Source: Zobellella sp. DQSA1 (GTDB lineage: Bacteria; Pseudomonadota; Gammaproteobacteria; Enterobacterales; Aeromonadaceae). From it: a stretch of DNA of 24,000 bases. The stretch is from NCBI RefSeq assembly GCF_041950555.1, contig NZ_CP169531.1, positions 2,970,560 to 2,994,559 on the forward strand, given 5' to 3'. A program made the position numbers and the translations under genes. Shown piece by piece: positions 4,385-14,393 of the stretch (its first letter is position 1; each line of letters begins with the position of its first letter). The notes beneath the pieces were generated by a model that saw only the letters and a program-made list of their open reading frames with translations, searched no databases and was not told where the DNA came from.

Positions 4385-5332
4385 GTGCCCGACATGAAGC
4401 TGTTTGCTGGTAATGCAACGCCGGAACTCGCCCAACGTATCGCCGATCGTCTCTTTATCAAACTGAGTGCTGCCGATGTCGGCCGCTTCAGTGACGGCGA
4501 AATCAGCGTACAAATCAACGAAAATGTACGTGGCGGCGATGTCTTCATCATCCAGTCCACCTGCGCACCGACCAACGATAACCTGATGGAACTGATCGTG
4601 ATGGTGGATGCCCTGCGCCGAGCCTCCGCCGGTCGTATTACCGCCGTTATCCCCTACTTTGGCTATGCTCGCCAGGACCGCCGCGTGCGCTCCGCCCGGG
4701 TACCGATTACCGCCAAGGTCGTGGCCGACTTCCTGTCCAGCGTGGGCGTTGACCGGGTACTGACCGTCGACCTGCATGCCGAACAGATCCAGGGTTTCTT
4801 CGATGTACCGGTGGACAACGTGTTCGGCACGCCGGTGCTGCTGGAAGACATGAAAGCCAAGAACCTGCACAACGCCGTGGTGGTCTCCCCCGATATCGGC
4901 GGTGTAGTGCGGGCCCGAGCCGTGGCCAAGTTGCTGGATGAAACCGATATCGCCATCATCGACAAGCGCCGTCCTCGTGCCAACGTGTCCCAGGTGATGC
5001 ATCTGATCGGTGATGTGGAAGGCCGTGACTGCGTGATCGTGGACGATATGATCGACACCGGCGGCACCCTGTGCAAGGCCGCCGAAGCCCTGAAGAACCA
5101 CGGCGCCAAGCGCGTGTTCGCTTACGCCACCCACGCCGTGTTCTCCGGCAATGCCGCCCAGAACATCAAGGACTCGGTGATTGACGAGGTGATCATCACC
5201 GACTCCATCCCGCTGACTCCGGAAATCGAAGCCCTGGCCAAGGTTAAGCAGCTGTCCCTGTCCGGCATGCTGGCCGAAGCCATTCGCCGCATCAGCAACG
5301 AAGAGTCCATCTCCGCCATGTTCGAGCACTAA
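4385..5332 (+). CDS. prs: Ribose-phosphate pyrophosphokinase (PRPP synthetase)
   Basis: Very high identity to E. coli Prs along the whole length (..[30 protein letters not shown]). Alignment with the E. coli N-terminus MPDMKLF puts the start at GTG 4385, with GAGG 9 nt upstream. ATG 4394 is the alternative. The upstream in-frame extension to 4247 has no homology. Confidence 0.95.
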
Positions 5333-5349
5333 GCGCTCGAGCTGGAAGC

Positions 5350-5378
5350 AAAAAGCCCGCGAATCCGCGGGCTTTTTT
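5350..5378. terminator. Bidirectional rho-independent terminator between prs and the TauE-family gene
   Basis: AAAAA-GCCCGCG-aatc-CGCGGGC-TTTTTT. This is a perfect 7-bp GC stem with a 4-nt loop, an A-run on the left and a T-run on the right. Confidence 0.85.
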
Positions 5379-5384
5379 GTGTTT

Positions 5385-5433
5385 GGGATTCGGGATTCGG
5401 GATTCGGGATTCGGGATTCGGGATTCGGGATTC
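5385..5433. repeat. Perfect tandem heptamer array (GGGATTC)x7
   Basis: Units start at 5385, 5392, 5399, 5406, 5413, 5420 and 5427, with no substitutions. Confidence 0.98.
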
Positions 5434-5450
5434 ACAGTGAGTGTATCAGT

Positions 5451-5504
5451 CCCCAGTCCCCAGTCCCCAGTCCCCAGTCCCCAGTCCCCAGTCCCCAGTC
5501 CCCA
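5451..5504. repeat. Perfect tandem heptamer array (CCCCAGT)x7 plus a partial eighth unit CCCCA
   Basis: Units start at 5451, 5458, 5465, 5472, 5479, 5486 and 5493, and the partial unit spans 5500-5504. The array ends 2 nt before the stop codon (5507-5509) of the minus-strand TauE-family gene. Confidence 0.98.
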
Positions 5505-5506
5505 AA

Positions 5507-6244
5507 TTACCAATAGAACCGCACAAAGTAGTAACCGCTCAGGCCGATGCCAAACAGCACTATGGTCCAGGCCAGCAGCCGGGGCTTTATCCATACCAGC
5601 AGCCGGGCACCCAGCTTGCCCCCGACCAGATACCCCAGCGCCAGCACCAGGCAGGCCCGCCAGTGCACCAGTCCGGACAGGGAATACACCAGGATGGTGG
5701 CGCCGCTGGCCAGCATCGACAGATACAGCTTGATGGCGTGCTGCTGCAGGTTGGATCCCATCCTCAGCTGGCCGGTCAACGCCATCAGCAATACCCCCAG
5801 GCCACCACCGAAGAAGCCGCCGTAAAAGGCACCGCCCAGCAACAGTGGCCAAGCCCGGCGTTTCATGTCGAGCGGCCCTTCGAAACCGGAGCGGCTCAGC
5901 AGTTGGCGGGCATAGAGCAGGCTCACCGTCAGCAGCAGCCAGGGTACCAGGTAGTTGAAGCTGTCGGCATGGAACTGCACCAGCGCCAAAGCCCCCAGTC
6001 CGCCACCGGCCAGGCCGATGCCGGTCAGTGCCAACCAGGGGCCGCTGCCGAGCTGGCGACGCATGCCCCAGAAGGCACTGGCATAGCCGGGCCAGGAAGC
6101 CACACTGGCGGTAGCCACCGCACCGGTGCTGGGTACCCCCGTAGCCAGCAGCGCCGGCAGGGTCAAGAAGAGGCCGCCACCGGCCAGGGCATTGAGCACC
6201 CCGGCGAGCAGGGCCCAGCCGAGCAGTTCGTACATAAGAAGCAT
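5507..6244 (-). CDS. TauE/SafE (DUF81) family anion-exporter-type membrane protein
   Basis: A polytopic hydrophobic protein with Gly-rich transmembrane helices (LNALAGGGLFLTLPALL.., GGAFYGGFFGGGLGVLLMA) typical of TauE/SafE. The start is chosen at ATG 6244 (MLLMYELLG); ATG 6235 is also possible. The track start at 6301 adds a non-hydrophobic extension with no support. Confidence 0.7.
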   Translation of the reverse strand: MLLMYELLGWALLAGVLNALAGGGLFLTLPALLATGVPSTGAVATASVASWPGYASAFWGMRRQLGSGPWLALTGIGLAGGGLGALALVQFHADSFNYLVPWLLLTVSLLYARQLLSRSGFEGPLDMKRRAWPLLLGGAFYGGFFGGGLGVLLMALTGQLRMGSNLQQHAIKLYLSMLASGATILVYSLSGLVHWRACLVLALGYLVGGKLGARLLVWIKPRLLAWTIVLFGIGLSGYYFVRFYW

Positions 6245-9258: not shown

Positions 9259-9867
9259 TCAGTAATACCAGTATCCCTGTCTCCAGTAGCCGAAGTATGA
9301 ATAACCCCGGTACCAGTAGCCGCGATAGTATTCACGCCAGTGCTGGCGCCAGCGATAATCCCCGGCCTCCCGTTGTTTCGCCTCGGCGGCTTCCGCCAAC
9401 AGGGAGGCTGACTCCTGATCTCCCTGGGCAGCCGCCATGGACAGCCATTTCTCCGCTTCTTGCGGATCGCTGCCCATTTCCTCGAGGCCGCTCAGGTAAT
9501 ATCCGCCCAGTGCTTGCTGGGCATGAAGCAGGCCGCTTTCGCCGGCCTTGCGCATCCATTGCAGCGCCTGGTAGCTGTTGCGTTGTATACCGTCACCACG
9601 GAAGTAACGCAGAGCGAGATCATAAGCCGCCCTGGGGTCACTGCTCGCCGCCTCTTCGAGTTTAAGTATTTGTTCGCTTTTGACGACCGGCGGCTCGTCC
9701 AGGTAGTCGGCGGTAGCAGAGGAAGAGGAACGTTCGGAACAGCCGGTGTCGTCGCAGAAACGCAGGGTTTCTTTAGAGGTGCTGGTAGCACAGGCGCTGA
9801 GGGTTACGGCGACGCCGACCAGAATGAGACATTTCTTCAGCGGGTTGCCCCTTGAATTGCTGACCAT
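9259..9867 (-). CDS. Sel1-repeat (SLR/TPR-like) lipoprotein with an aromatic/Arg/Gly-rich C-terminal tail
   Basis: The start is chosen at ATG 9867, which has AAGGAA about 9 nt upstream. The track start at 9894 is a GTG with no better support. The lipobox is LSAC (Cys26, +2 Ala). Sel1-type repeats are present (AAYDLALRYFRGDGIQRNSYQALQWMRKAGESG; HAQQALGGYYLSG...EAEKWLSMAAAQG). The tail reads DYRWRQHWREYYRGYWYRGYSYFGYWRQGYWYY. Confidence 0.75.
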   Translation of the reverse strand: MVSNSRGNPLKKCLILVGVAVTLSACATSTSKETLRFCDDTGCSERSSSSATADYLDEPPVVKSEQILKLEEAASSDPRAAYDLALRYFRGDGIQRNSYQALQWMRKAGESGLLHAQQALGGYYLSGLEEMGSDPQEAEKWLSMAAAQGDQESASLLAEAAEAKQREAGDYRWRQHWREYYRGYWYRGYSYFGYWRQGYWYY

Positions 9868-9950
9868 AGCGAAACATTCCTTGTAAATAGGCACAGGCTA
9901 AATAGAAAAATGCGGGACTCTTATTTTCAACCCAACCGTAAAAGCCAACA

Positions 9951-9970
9951 ACCTGTACTAAAGTACAGGT
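9951..9970 (-). promoter_or_regulatory. lux-box-type palindrome (candidate LuxR-family operator) upstream of the Sel1/CsgG-like operon
   Basis: ACCTGTACTAAAGTACAGGT has 9-bp perfectly complementary arms around a 2-nt centre. It matches the V. fischeri luxI lux box ACCTGTAGGATCGTACAGGT at 16/20 positions, with mismatches only at central positions 8, 9, 11 and 12. A minus-strand GAAAAT -10-like hexamer (9928..9923) lies 35 bp centre-to-centre downstream. Confidence 0.6.
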
Positions 9971-10619
9971 AGCCAGACTGTTATCCTCTGGGTATCTACG
10001 AGATGTCGCGTCAATAGTTTCCAGCGGCAGCGTGGGTTGACCATCCAGTGTCGGGATATTTTTTGAAGTCAGCGATAACGATATATTGGTACCACGGCGA
10101 TAGGTTAAATAGCTGTTCCGAATAGTAGATCACTGCCGACAGCGACCGGGGGCTGCTAAGCAGGCCCTTCGCGCCAGGGATGGCGCGGCGGAGCCCCCAA
10201 GGATGGGGTTACGGCGTGTCTGCGTGCGGTGTCCGCTCGATGTAGCACTATTAGGATCTATTATTTAAACAAGCGCGGCCATGATCTGCTCAAGTCAGCA
10301 CCGATGGTCACGACCTTCATGAATCAATACAGGAAACCAGCTCATGAATTTCAAACCATGTACTGGATAGGCCACAACATCCAGACTCCGGGCTGTCCCC
10401 GAATCTCGCCACGCGGTTGCCGCAGCCGAGCACGCCTGTACCCCACTTCAGTGCCGGGGCTTGGCGTGGTTACCGGCACGACATGAGCGAGACGAACACC
10501 AACACCTTGACAAAAAGTAGCGGGGCGTTTTCACACTTGGCTAAACTCAAGGCATGTCACCTCCGCTCACCCGGGCTATGGAATGGACTGCAAATATGAT
10601 GAACTCAGGGGATTGATGA

Positions 10620-11327
10620 ATGTTAGCCAAGAGTGATCTGCTCTTGACGCTTGATCTTATTTCCAAGTGCCTGGAGATAAGAAGTCAAGAGAACCTCAAG
10701 GAACTAAAGGACACCCTAAGCAAAGAGCTGGGCATCAGTTCCATGGTTGCCGGTCGTGTATGTCGGTACACCAAAGTTGAAACCGGATATTTTTTTGGCA
10801 TAAGTGAAGAATGGAGTAGGTTATATATAGAAAACAATTATTCCATGGTGGATCCTGTATTTAATTTATCTATCAGATCCTCTGTCCCCTTCCTGTGGGC
10901 GACTGCTTACTCCCGCGCTGGCCATAACAGTAACGAGTTTATCCAACGCGCCAGGGATTTCTCTCTGATGGAAGGCATTTGCTATGCACCAAAGGATTAC
11001 TCAATGGTGGCCGATACCACAGTGGTATCGCTTGGAAATGGAAAAACGCCTTTAGATCGTATGCAAGTCGAGATTATCAAGCATCTCATCCCCCATATTG
11101 CTGAAACCCTGATGCGGCCTTCCCTGTGGAACAATCCAAGATTAACGCCAAAAGAGATAGAAGTTATCAAATGGTGTGCTCATGGCAAGTCTTACTGGGA
11201 GATTTCCCTGGTCATGTCCATTTCCGAGCGAACGGTAAAATTTCATATGAATAATATCTTCAAAAAGCTGGATGTCCTGAATAAGGCCCAGGCTGTAGCC
11301 AGATGCATGAGCTTGGGATACGTGTAG
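10620..11327 (+). CDS. LuxR-family transcriptional regulator with an autoinducer-binding domain and no adjacent luxI (LuxR solo)
   Basis: 235 aa. The C-terminus is a GerE/LuxR helix-turn-helix (HTH) domain (LTPKEIEVIKWCAHGKSYWEISLVMSISERTVKFHMNNIFKKLDV). The N-terminal domain carries W65, Y69, D78, P79, W93 and G119, and the first five have exactly the spacing of TraR W57/Y61/D70/P71/W85. AGGGGA lies 7 nt upstream of the ATG. Confidence 0.85.
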   Translation: MLAKSDLLLTLDLISKCLEIRSQENLKELKDTLSKELGISSMVAGRVCRYTKVETGYFFGISEEWSRLYIENNYSMVDPVFNLSIRSSVPFLWATAYSRAGHNSNEFIQRARDFSLMEGICYAPKDYSMVADTTVVSLGNGKTPLDRMQVEIIKHLIPHIAETLMRPSLWNNPRLTPKEIEVIKWCAHGKSYWEISLVMSISERTVKFHMNNIFKKLDVLNKAQAVARCMSLGYV

Positions 11328-13670: not shown

Positions 13671-13747
13671 GGCTATGTAGCTCAGTTGGTTAGAGCACAT
13701 CACTCATAATGATGGGGTCGCAGGTTCGAATCCCGCCATAGCCACCA
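13671..13747 (+). tRNA. tRNA-Met (CAU), elongator type
   Basis: GGCTATGTAGCTCAGTTGGTTAGAGCACATCACTCATAATGATGGGGTCGCAGGTTCGAATCCCGCCATAGCCACCA. The cloverleaf is readable, the anticodon loop is CTCATAA, and the CCA end is encoded. It is close to E. coli metT/metU. Confidence 0.95.
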
Positions 13748-13753
13748 CTCTGC

Positions 13754-13828
13754 TGGGGTATCGCCAAGCGGTAAGGCAGCGGGTTTTGATCCCGCCATTC
13801 CCAGGTTCGAATCCTGGTACCCCAGCCA
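13754..13828 (+). tRNA. tRNA-Gln (UUG)
   Basis: TGGGGTATCGCCAAGCGGTAAGGCAGCGGGTTTTGATCCCGCCATTCCCAGGTTCGAATCCTGGTACCCCAGCCA. The anticodon stem is GCGGG/CCCGC with loop TTTTGAT, and the CCA end is encoded. Confidence 0.95.
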
Positions 13829-13831
13829 TAT

Positions 13832-13906
13832 TATCTGTCAAGCTGGATTAACAGCGGGTTTTGCTCCCGGCCTCAGCGCCCAGGTTCGGAACTCGGTAAC
13901 CAGGCT
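13832..13906 (+). pseudogene. Decayed tRNA-Gln copy in the operon spacer
   Basis: It aligns by eye to the intact tRNA-Gln. CAGCGGGTTTTG (anticodon stem and loop) is identical and CCCAGGTTCG of the T-arm is retained. The acceptor stem, D-arm and T-stem complement are broken (..TTCGGAACTCGGTAACCAGGCTA). Confidence 0.5.
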
Positions 13907-13954
13907 ATTTTTTAAATGGCTGGCAATTGTGTTATAACTGCCAACCATCACTGT

Positions 13955-14029
13955 TGGGGTATCGCCAAGCGGTAAGGCAGCGGGTTTTGATCCCGCCATT
14001 CCCAGGTTCGAATCCTGGTACCCCAGCCA
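13955..14029 (+). tRNA. tRNA-Gln (UUG), identical to the copy at 13754
   Basis: 75/75 identical sequence, with the CCA end encoded. Confidence 0.95.
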
Positions 14030-14039
14030 TTTTTCATAA

Positions 14040-14107
14040 ATGGTTGAAGAAAAGCAGAGTTTGGCACCGGCATTTATGACCTGGTTCGTAGCTCGGCACT
14101 ACAGCCA
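14040..14107 (+). pseudogene. Second, more degraded tRNA-Gln-derived spacer
   Basis: AAGCAGAGTTTGGCACCGGCATT...CCTGGTTCGTAGCTCGGCACTACAGCCA parallels AGGCAGCGGGTTTTGATCCCGCCATT...CCAGGTTCGAATCCTGGTACCCCAGCCA. No cloverleaf can be drawn. Confidence 0.4.
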
Positions 14108-14141
14108 TTTAAACACCATTGAGGCGACTCAATGCTTATGT

Positions 14142-14218
14142 GGCTATGTAGCTCAGTTGGTTAGAGCACATCACTCATAATGATGGGGTCGCAGGTTCGA
14201 ATCCCGCCATAGCCACCA
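14142..14218 (+). tRNA. tRNA-Met (CAU), identical to the copy at 13671
   Basis: 77/77 identical sequence. Confidence 0.95.
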
Positions 14219-14225
14219 CTCTTTT

Positions 14226-14310
14226 GCGGGAGTGGCGAAATTGGTAGACGCACCAGATTTAGGTTCTGGCGCCGCAAGGTGTGCGAGTTCAAGTCTCGCC
14301 TCCCGCACCA
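14226..14310 (+). tRNA. leuW: tRNA-Leu (UAG), class II with a long variable arm
   Basis: GCGGGAGTGGCGAAATTGGTAGACGCACCAGATTTAGGTTCTGGCGCCGCAAGGTGTGCGAGTTCAAGTCTCGCCTCCCGCACCA. The anticodon loop is TTTAGGT. It matches my recollection of E. coli leuW. Confidence 0.95.
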
Positions 14311-14318
14311 TTAAAAAT

Positions 14319-14393
14319 TGGGGTATCGCCAAGCGGTAAGGCAGCGGGTTTTGATCCCGCCATTCCCAGGTTCGAATCCTGGTACCCCAGCCA
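14319..14393 (+). tRNA. tRNA-Gln (UUG), third identical copy
   Basis: 75/75 identical to 13754-13828. Confidence 0.95.

Follow-up and report, generated by a model that had tools for sequence, protein, structure and literature searches.

In the luxI promoter of Vibrio fischeri (BBa_R0062), the hexamer TATAGT occupies positions +22 to +27 after the operator, and in Pseudomonas aeruginosa the LuxR solo QscR has an adjacent target operon, with the PA1897 promoter. A box located 49 bp from the start of its regulator gene has, for its part, a position typical of EsaR-type autorepression. Here, we compare with such systems a 20-bp palindrome, ACCTGTACTAAAGTACAGGT, which lies between a LuxR-family regulator gene and a divergent lipoprotein gene in a stretch of 24,000 nucleotides from Zobellella sp. 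DQSA1 (contig NZ_CP169531.1; this whole stretch is called the window below). A lux-type box is defined as a dyad of ~20 bp (PMC10134790, PMC4338825) that displays a CT-N12-AG motif (PMC4338825), and the V. fischeri operator has been printed as ACCTGTAGGATCGTACAGGT (PMC4444344). The hallmark residues of LuxR proteins are, in TraR numbering, W57, Y61, D70, P71, W85 and G113, together with E178, L182 and G188 in the helix-turn-helix (HTH) domain (PMC10134790). We propose that the Zobellella palindrome is very probably the operator at which a dimer of the neighbouring regulator would exert class-II activation of a Sel1-repeat lipoprotein gene and of the CsgG/LpoB-like gene that follows it (Table 1).

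Results

The palindrome has the ~20-bp length and the dyad symmetry of a lux-type box, with two perfectly complementary 9-bp arms (ACCTGTACT/AGTACAGGT) placed around a central AA. Its core, CTGTACTAAAGTACAG at 9953-9968, shows the CTG-N10-CAG (CT-N12-AG) arrangement that characterizes lux boxes. Compared with the V. fischeri operator, 16 of the 20 positions are identical and the mismatches (positions 8, 9, 11 and 12) are central. A preliminary description of this DNA, made from its letters alone, had already reported the 20-mer with its coordinates, its arms around AA and its match to V. fischeri, and all of this is confirmed by direct reading of the window and by the published operator. The sequence is single in the window even when three mismatches are tolerated (0.00 expected from 100 shuffles), and no second site with up to six mismatches was found along these 24 kb. 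A literature search retrieved neither the 20-mer nor any paper linking Zobellella to quorum-sensing genes.

The presumed partner of this box is encoded on the other side of the spacer. The protein, which is 100% identical to an NCBI entry from Zobellella sp. DQSA1, matches PF03472 (E = 1.7e-13) and PF00196 (E = 3e-18), and its closest solved structures are CviR, RhlR, QscR (E = 4.4e-18), LasR, SdiA and TraR. Structure alignments recover six out of six hallmarks of the acyl-homoserine lactone (AHL) pocket, namely W65, Y69, D78, P79, W93 and G119, while the residue equivalent to TraR Y53 is I61. In the HTH domain, the hallmark positions are filled by E179, I183 (a conservative change from leucine) and G189, and the recognition helix carries the motif TVKFH. 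Both the domain make-up and the length of the protein (235 aa) agree with those of AHL-type LuxR solos (230-270 aa), and a tblastn search with two LuxI proteins revealed no luxI homologue in the 24-kb window. Judged on these features, the regulator is an AHL-type LuxR and, at least locally, a solo; the label of LuxR solo given in the preliminary description holds for the 24-kb window only. Since the GC content drops to 44.6% in the regulator gene and to 41.5% in the segment with the box and its promoter, compared with 61% for the window and 59-63% in the genes on either side, the cassette with luxR appears to have been acquired horizontally.

Table 1. Coordinates of the box, the predicted promoter elements and the associated genes in the window.
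Feature	Position	Strand	Basis and remarks
20-bp lux-type operator ACCTGTACTAAAGTACAGGT	9951..9970		CTG-N10-CAG core and 9-bp perfect arms
-35-like TTGTTG	9946..9951	minus	Formed by the final T of the box and the conserved TGTTG flank; spacing of 17 bp to the -10-like hexamer
-10-like hexamer GAAAAT (box-dependent promoter)	9923..9928	minus	+23..+28 after the box
Predicted transcription start zone	9915..9919	minus	Placed solely from the position of the -10-like hexamer
LuxR-family regulator, 235 aa, Autoind_bind + GerE HTH	10620..11327	plus	Pfam; presumed to bind the box
Sel1-repeat lipoprotein, 202 aa, aromatic/Arg-rich C-terminal tail	9259..9867	minus	Pfam Sel1, E = 9.3e-14; first gene after the promoter
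CsgG/LpoB-like lipoprotein, 278 aa	8307..9143	minus	Weak Pfam LpoB match; second gene
Probable decayed second box CAACA-CCTTGAC-A5-GTAGCGGGG	10500..10525		~108 bp upstream of the luxR ATG; CTG/CAG cores destroyed

The association between the box and this type of regulator extends to its relatives. The regulator family comprised 20 proteins at E <= 1e-10, for which every usable locus was fetched, and co-occurrence was counted in the loci that include upstream DNA. In every one of them (44-87% identity for the regulator), the best match to the box adjoins the regulator gene. The box reads ACCTGCACTAAAGTACAGGG in L001-L006 and L010-L012 (70% regulator identity), ACCTGTACGAAAGTGCAGGT in L013 (63%), ACCTGCACTTAAGTACAGGC in L015 (71%) and ACCTGCACTAAAGTACAGGT in L080 (87%). 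A synthase gene is absent next to the regulator in the close relatives among L001-L015 and present in two distant ones, L007 from Bacterioplanoides (47%) and L014 (44%), where the box precedes the luxI ATG by 70-75 bp; in L007, a further box is placed before a hydrolase-polyketide synthase operon. These two loci display the classical LuxR-LuxI arrangement and, because the box precedes luxI in both, this regulator lineage can be said, from the layout of its genes, to use this type of box. Relatives with ~63-87% identity are confined to a small number of metagenome contigs of marine and environmental origin. Another metagenome contig (L009) encodes two paralogous regulators (565-1263 and 5001-5699; 53% and 50% identical to the window protein) together with three box variants, AGCTGTACTAGCGTACAGCT, AGCTGTCCGATAGTACAGCT and AGCTGAACTTCCGTACAGTA, which constitute a shifted dialect with AGCTG in place of ACCTG.

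Besides the box itself, its core promoter is conserved. When the orthologous intergenic regions of the window, L001, L010, L013 and L015 were aligned on the strand of the divergent gene, only three conserved blocks emerged: the box (mean pairwise identity of 87%, 15 of 20 columns invariant), the five bases TGT(T/G)G that abut it (92%, four of five columns invariant) and a GAAnAT hexamer (85%, five of six columns invariant). The remaining intergenic segments show 31-38% identity with few invariant columns, and the spacer around the hexamer 33-38%. The distance between these blocks is also maintained, since the hexamer occupies +23..+28 relative to the box in four loci (window, L010, L013 and L015) and is shifted by one base, to +24..+29, in L001, while the luxR-facing strand has no conserved -10 at an offset of this kind. 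In the window, GAAAAT reads from 9928 to 9923 on the minus strand with its centre 35 bp from that of the box (9960.5 minus 9925.5), exactly as first described, and the centre of the box is 93.5 bp away from ATG 9867, for which ~93 bp had been given. With a transcription start predicted 6-8 nt after the hexamer, the centre of the box would be at about -42.5 to -45.5, and the overlapping TTGTTG could act as the -35 element. The box is probably embedded in a conserved activator-type promoter, with a centre predicted around -43 to -45. The activator distance put forward earlier for a minus-strand promoter, which corresponds to class II, is supported by this conserved spacing of box, flank and GAAnAT and by luxI promoters of similar layout (see below).

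To place the operator in a broader context, the pattern ACCTGYACTWAAGTRCAGG was scanned over 185,579 species genomes (596 Gb), a collection to which that of Zobellella sp. DQSA1 does not belong. This yielded 61 sites in 60 stretches, for a few tens estimated by chance, with a maximum of two stretches per genome; the palindrome is no generic repeat, either in the window or in these genomes, a possibility that had been raised at the outset. The exact 20-mer accounts for 18 of the 61 sites, whereas equal frequencies of the 32 allowed variants would predict ~2, and the perfect site is therefore favoured in nature. For at least 21 of the 61, a gene for a GerE HTH protein is found no further than 1 kb away, the background rate of such proximity being estimated from general knowledge only. 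Six of these loci, in Pantoea, Sodalis and Acerihabitans, are canonical LuxR/LuxI pairs. The others include four Bacteroidota, in which a GAF-GerE regulator gene is followed by a glyoxalase-family gene and the box precedes the latter by 85 bp, and five Anaerolineae with a receiver-GerE regulator, where the box is 120-134 bp upstream of an operon for ferredoxin and aldehyde ferredoxin oxidoreductase. Receiver-GerE proteins are also encoded beside the box in one Thermodesulfobacteriota and one Desulfosporosinus genome, while in Clostridiales, Synergistaceae and Thiohalomonadaceae the neighbouring GerE proteins are 474-883 aa long and have unassigned N-termini (examples of cross-phylum sites: L065 3330-3349, with a GAF-GerE protein of Flagellimonas spongiicola, L054 4615-4634, L028 3902-3921, L036 7151-7170, with a receiver-GerE protein of Leptolinea sp. 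HRD-7, L067 2808-2827 and L061 4384-4403). Nearly all these HTH domains carry the TVKFH motif of the window protein, two of them having TIKFH and TVKYH instead. Taken at the sequence level, these associations are a separate line of evidence that links the 20-mer to GerE-type DNA-binding domains, and they suggest that its use as an operator goes beyond AHL receptors.

Two further features of these sites deserve mention. Several cross-phylum sites have an extra GTACAG half-site ~15 bp away. In Acidobacteriota (L016 3584, L031 4723, L053 5325 and L057 5371), the box is part of a longer palindrome, ATGGCTAAT-box-ATTAGCCAT, located ~80-105 bp upstream of genes for a PilB-like and PilT-like ATPase pair with a divergent HAMP-PAS histidine kinase gene, and no GerE gene was found within 3 kb in these four loci.

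As for the genes that follow the box, the credible start is ATG 9867, on the basis of an AAGGAA ribosome-binding site 9 nt upstream and of a lipobox cysteine at residue 26, as in homologues, which also gives a signal peptide of the same length. The second gene is probably co-transcribed with it; relatives of its product match PF03783 (CsgG) or PF13036 (LpoB) and are annotated in their source entries as curli CsgG-like or LpoB. The pair is conserved with a gap of ~100 bp in Zestomonas thermotolerans and three metagenome contigs (84-88% identity; L076-L079), in which neither a nearby luxR nor a box within seven mismatches was found. Because the Sel1/CsgG-like pair exists elsewhere without luxR or box, the Zobellella locus reads as a regulatory cassette fused to a new cargo. 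Indeed, the L001-type loci have a conserved 123-aa lipoprotein family downstream of the box, and blastp and tblastn comparisons of the window with these relatives detected neither homology between the downstream genes nor any trace of the 123-aa family in the window. The Sel1 lipoprotein also ends with a conserved Tyr/Trp/Arg/Gly-rich tail (DYRWRQHWREYYRGYWYRGYSYFGYWRQGYWYY) and is always paired with a CsgG/LpoB-like lipoprotein; together, they may form a small envelope or secretion module.

The spacer between the box and luxR retains marks of its history. In the environmental assembly L080, the Sel1 start, the promoter and the box correspond to those of the window (~90% DNA identity, a single change in the box), and ~430-450 bp of the spacer, roughly 10004-10453, are missing, an insert that is shared, at least for its right part, by L081. 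In this segment, possibly a small insertion element, a GC-rich core is flanked by imperfect inverted repeats of 30 nt (10097-10126 and 10247-10276). Beyond it, the probable relic of a second box (Table 1) coincides with the site of the single box in L001-type loci, with an altered central spacing. The relic was first suggested by a forced MAFFT alignment and is also present in L080 (217-248) and L081 (~265-292). Better preserved in L080 as CAACA-CCTTTAC-A6-GTACAAGG (ACCTTTAC-A6-GTACAAGG), it is there the sequence that, apart from the intact box, most resembles the L001 box with its flank, at a score reached by 0 of 500 shuffles; this shuffle test is liberal, as one such test gave an unrelated 'significant' match, and local alignment against shuffles was negative in the window alone. 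We regard the relic as a probable decayed copy of the box with modest support. A half-site ACCTGTAC at 10432-10439, with a CTG-N10-CAG match at 10436, was dropped as it is not conserved in L081. In the simplest reading of these remains, the luxR-box-promoter cassette would have been partly duplicated, the Sel1-facing copy of the box would have been kept perfect under selection, and the luxR-proximal copy would have decayed.

At ~2.3 kb beyond the low-GC luxR gene, the window also contains a cluster of six tRNA genes (13671-14393; Met, Gln, Gln, Met, Leu, Gln) in which Met-Gln units are duplicated.

Discussion

This work describes a site, the domain make-up of the regulator encoded next to it, the co-occurrence of both among relatives and a conserved promoter geometry. 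These observations fit a mechanism in which a dimer of the regulator would bind the box and, being centred near -43 to -45 as in the class-II position of luxI-type promoters, would recruit RNA polymerase for transcription of the Sel1 gene (9867-9259) and probably of the CsgG/LpoB-like gene (9143-8307). Because the regulator keeps an AHL pocket, activation would most likely be AHL-dependent, with a signal provided by other bacteria or by an unlinked synthase. The palindrome is very probably a genuine lux box, and its assignment to the adjacent LuxR, as proposed in the preliminary description, is strengthened by the hallmarks of the regulator, the boxes of its relatives, the footprint, the luxI promoters and the rarity of the 20-mer.

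Several observations weigh against this mechanism. The box is 650 bp away from the regulator gene, compared with ~116 bp in L001-type relatives, and its presence beside GAF- and receiver-containing GerE regulators means that another GerE protein could use the site. In addition, the -10-like GAAAAT agrees with TATAAT at only four of six positions, and a generic sigma-70 scan called no promoter at the box. Finally, as the downstream genes are not homologous to those of most relatives, conservation of the target cannot serve as evidence, except for L080.

An operator used by the same protein could have the opposite sign, the regulator repressing in its ligand-free form and being released by AHL as in EsaR-like systems, or could mainly serve the autoregulation of luxR. 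We consider this unlikely, although it is the most serious of the competing explanations. In its favour, the start of a luxR homologue in Pantoea loci is preceded, at only 49 bp, by a near-identical box, ACCTGTACTAAAGTGCAGGT. The box of L001-type loci is placed halfway between the divergent genes, and a GATAAT/CATAAT -10 is found towards luxR at +40..+45, making some effect on luxR transcription plausible. Both variants are nevertheless weakened by the place of the box in the window, upstream of the -10 and beside rather than over the -35-like element, as in the luxI-activating promoters of L018, L026 and L073. Moreover, luxR is located 650 bp away, past an insertion of ~430 bp, and its proximal copy of the box has decayed; for both reasons, selection seems to have acted on the function that faces Sel1.

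Activation by the neighbouring regulator has also to be weighed against the use of a genuine GerE-family operator by a different, unlinked GerE-HTH regulator, the adjacency of luxR being merely historical. The identical 20-mer found beside GAF-GerE, REC-GerE and other GerE proteins in several phyla speaks for such a user, which we nonetheless judge improbable. Indeed, the box accompanies this regulator lineage in all the loci that were fetched and stays intact in the window and L080 despite reshuffled neighbouring DNA, and the regulator shares its TVKFH recognition-helix motif with the other box-associated HTHs.

At the RNA level, the palindrome might act as a hairpin, either as an intrinsic terminator or as a stabilizer of a minus-strand transcript coming from the 9971-10619 spacer. 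The preliminary description had discarded hairpins on the ground that a 2-nt centre is too short for a loop. This argument does not hold, given that opening the innermost pair leaves an 8-bp stem with a 4-nt loop. A terminator scan flags precisely such a site on the minus strand (8-bp stem, TTTA loop, tail TGTTGGCTTT), and the minus-strand RNA with its flanks folds at -16.4 kcal/mol (z = -2.9), compared with -11.3 kcal/mol for the plus strand. However, the box lies between two divergent gene starts in L001, L010, L013 and L015, so nothing can terminate there, and in relatives the tails are not U-rich (TGTTGCCTGTGGGGG, TGTGGCTGCTCGG) and the fold z-scores are insignificant (-0.7 and -1.9). Moreover, a T/C asymmetry at positions 6/15 would place a G-U pair in the minus strand for L001 and in the plus strand for L013, implying that neither strand is consistently favoured, and the arms show a conserved sequence instead of covariation. 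Upstream on the minus strand, there is no open reading frame of at least 50 aa. Given the divergent context, the wobble positions that change strand, and relatives that show neither a U tract nor a significant fold, we reject the hairpin, which has in our opinion a very slight chance of being correct. A known RNA in the spacer is likewise rejected: at the gathering threshold, Rfam reports only tRNAs in the window, all of them outside the spacer, and in E-value mode the 10004-10453 segment gives a sub-threshold Ysr224 match (25 bits versus 70). Lastly, a chance palindrome or a dispersed repeat devoid of regulatory role, for which nothing but the general abundance of palindromes in intergenic DNA can be invoked, is next to impossible in view of 0 matches expected from window shuffles, of conservation among loci with 63-87% identical regulators while flanks are randomised, of no more than 60 stretches in 596 Gb with at most two per genome, and of the excess of exact 20-mers.

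Considering the lux operator and its use by the adjacent regulator together with the genomic survey, a wider view can be tentatively formulated, to which we grant somewhat less than even chances. On the one hand, luxR, box and core promoter may move as one portable unit, which serves 123-aa lipoproteins in L001-type loci and the Sel1/CsgG-like pair in the window and L080. On the other hand, the exact 20-mer may be the operator of a TVKFH subclass of GerE HTHs that are coupled to GAF, receiver and other sensors in Bacteroidota, Anaerolineae, Bacillota, Thermodesulfobacteriota and Synergistota, in which case the lux box would be older and broader than AHL quorum sensing and may predate it.

In itself, the element is well supported but of an ordinary kind, namely one more lux-type operator, and its moderate interest rests on the swap of cargo and on the cross-phylum spread of an identical operator. 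It leads to a first quorum-sensing hypothesis for Zobellella, in which an acquired AHL-type receptor would control a pair of lipoproteins related to the envelope or to secretion via a single near-perfect operator. It also offers an example of rewiring, where operator and core promoter are conserved and the cargo genes are swapped. If the link between the 20-mer and non-AHL GerE regulators across phyla is true, lux-box weight matrices alone are no evidence of AHL signalling. Besides, the near-perfect operator can serve directly as a probe in binding assays (EMSA, footprinting) and is a candidate part for reporter constructs.

Comparison with known systems

With the V. fischeri luxI promoter, the Zobellella site shares a 20-bp dyad with identical outer arms (ACCTGTA...TACAGGT; 16 of 20 positions overall), an operator that abuts a poor -35 and a -10 that starts 22-23 bp after the box. 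It differs in the central 5 bp, in its targets, which are envelope lipoproteins with no luxI or lux genes, and in the lack of a linked synthase; binding and transcription start are, in Zobellella, predictions from sequence.

A second comparison is with the luxI promoters of Sodalis (L018 and L073) and Acerihabitans (L026), in which the box is identical (ACCTGTACTAAAGTACAGGT in L026) or one base off (...GGC), is followed by TGTTAG where Zobellella has TGTTGG, and precedes TACCAT or TACTAT at the same +23..+28, with an Autoind_bind + GerE regulator encoded nearby. Unlike the Zobellella box, these boxes are placed before a gene for a luxI-type synthase in a full quorum-sensing pair, and their regulators are only ~26-28% identical to that of the window.

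In the arrangement of its genes, the locus resembles QscR and the PA1897 promoter: an AHL-type LuxR without linked synthase has retained its pocket residues and has a lux-type box before a neighbouring operon. The lineage of the regulator and the cargo genes are nonetheless different, and the solo status of the Zobellella regulator covers 24 kb.

Finally, EsaR and the esa box, represented here by Pantoea L033, L047 and L072, have a near-identical operator (ACCTGTACTAAAGTGCAGGT or ACCTGCACTAAAGTACAGGC) in a different setting. Whereas the Pantoea box is 49 bp from the start codon of its own regulator, in autorepression geometry, that of Zobellella precedes a divergent operon and its -35-like element.

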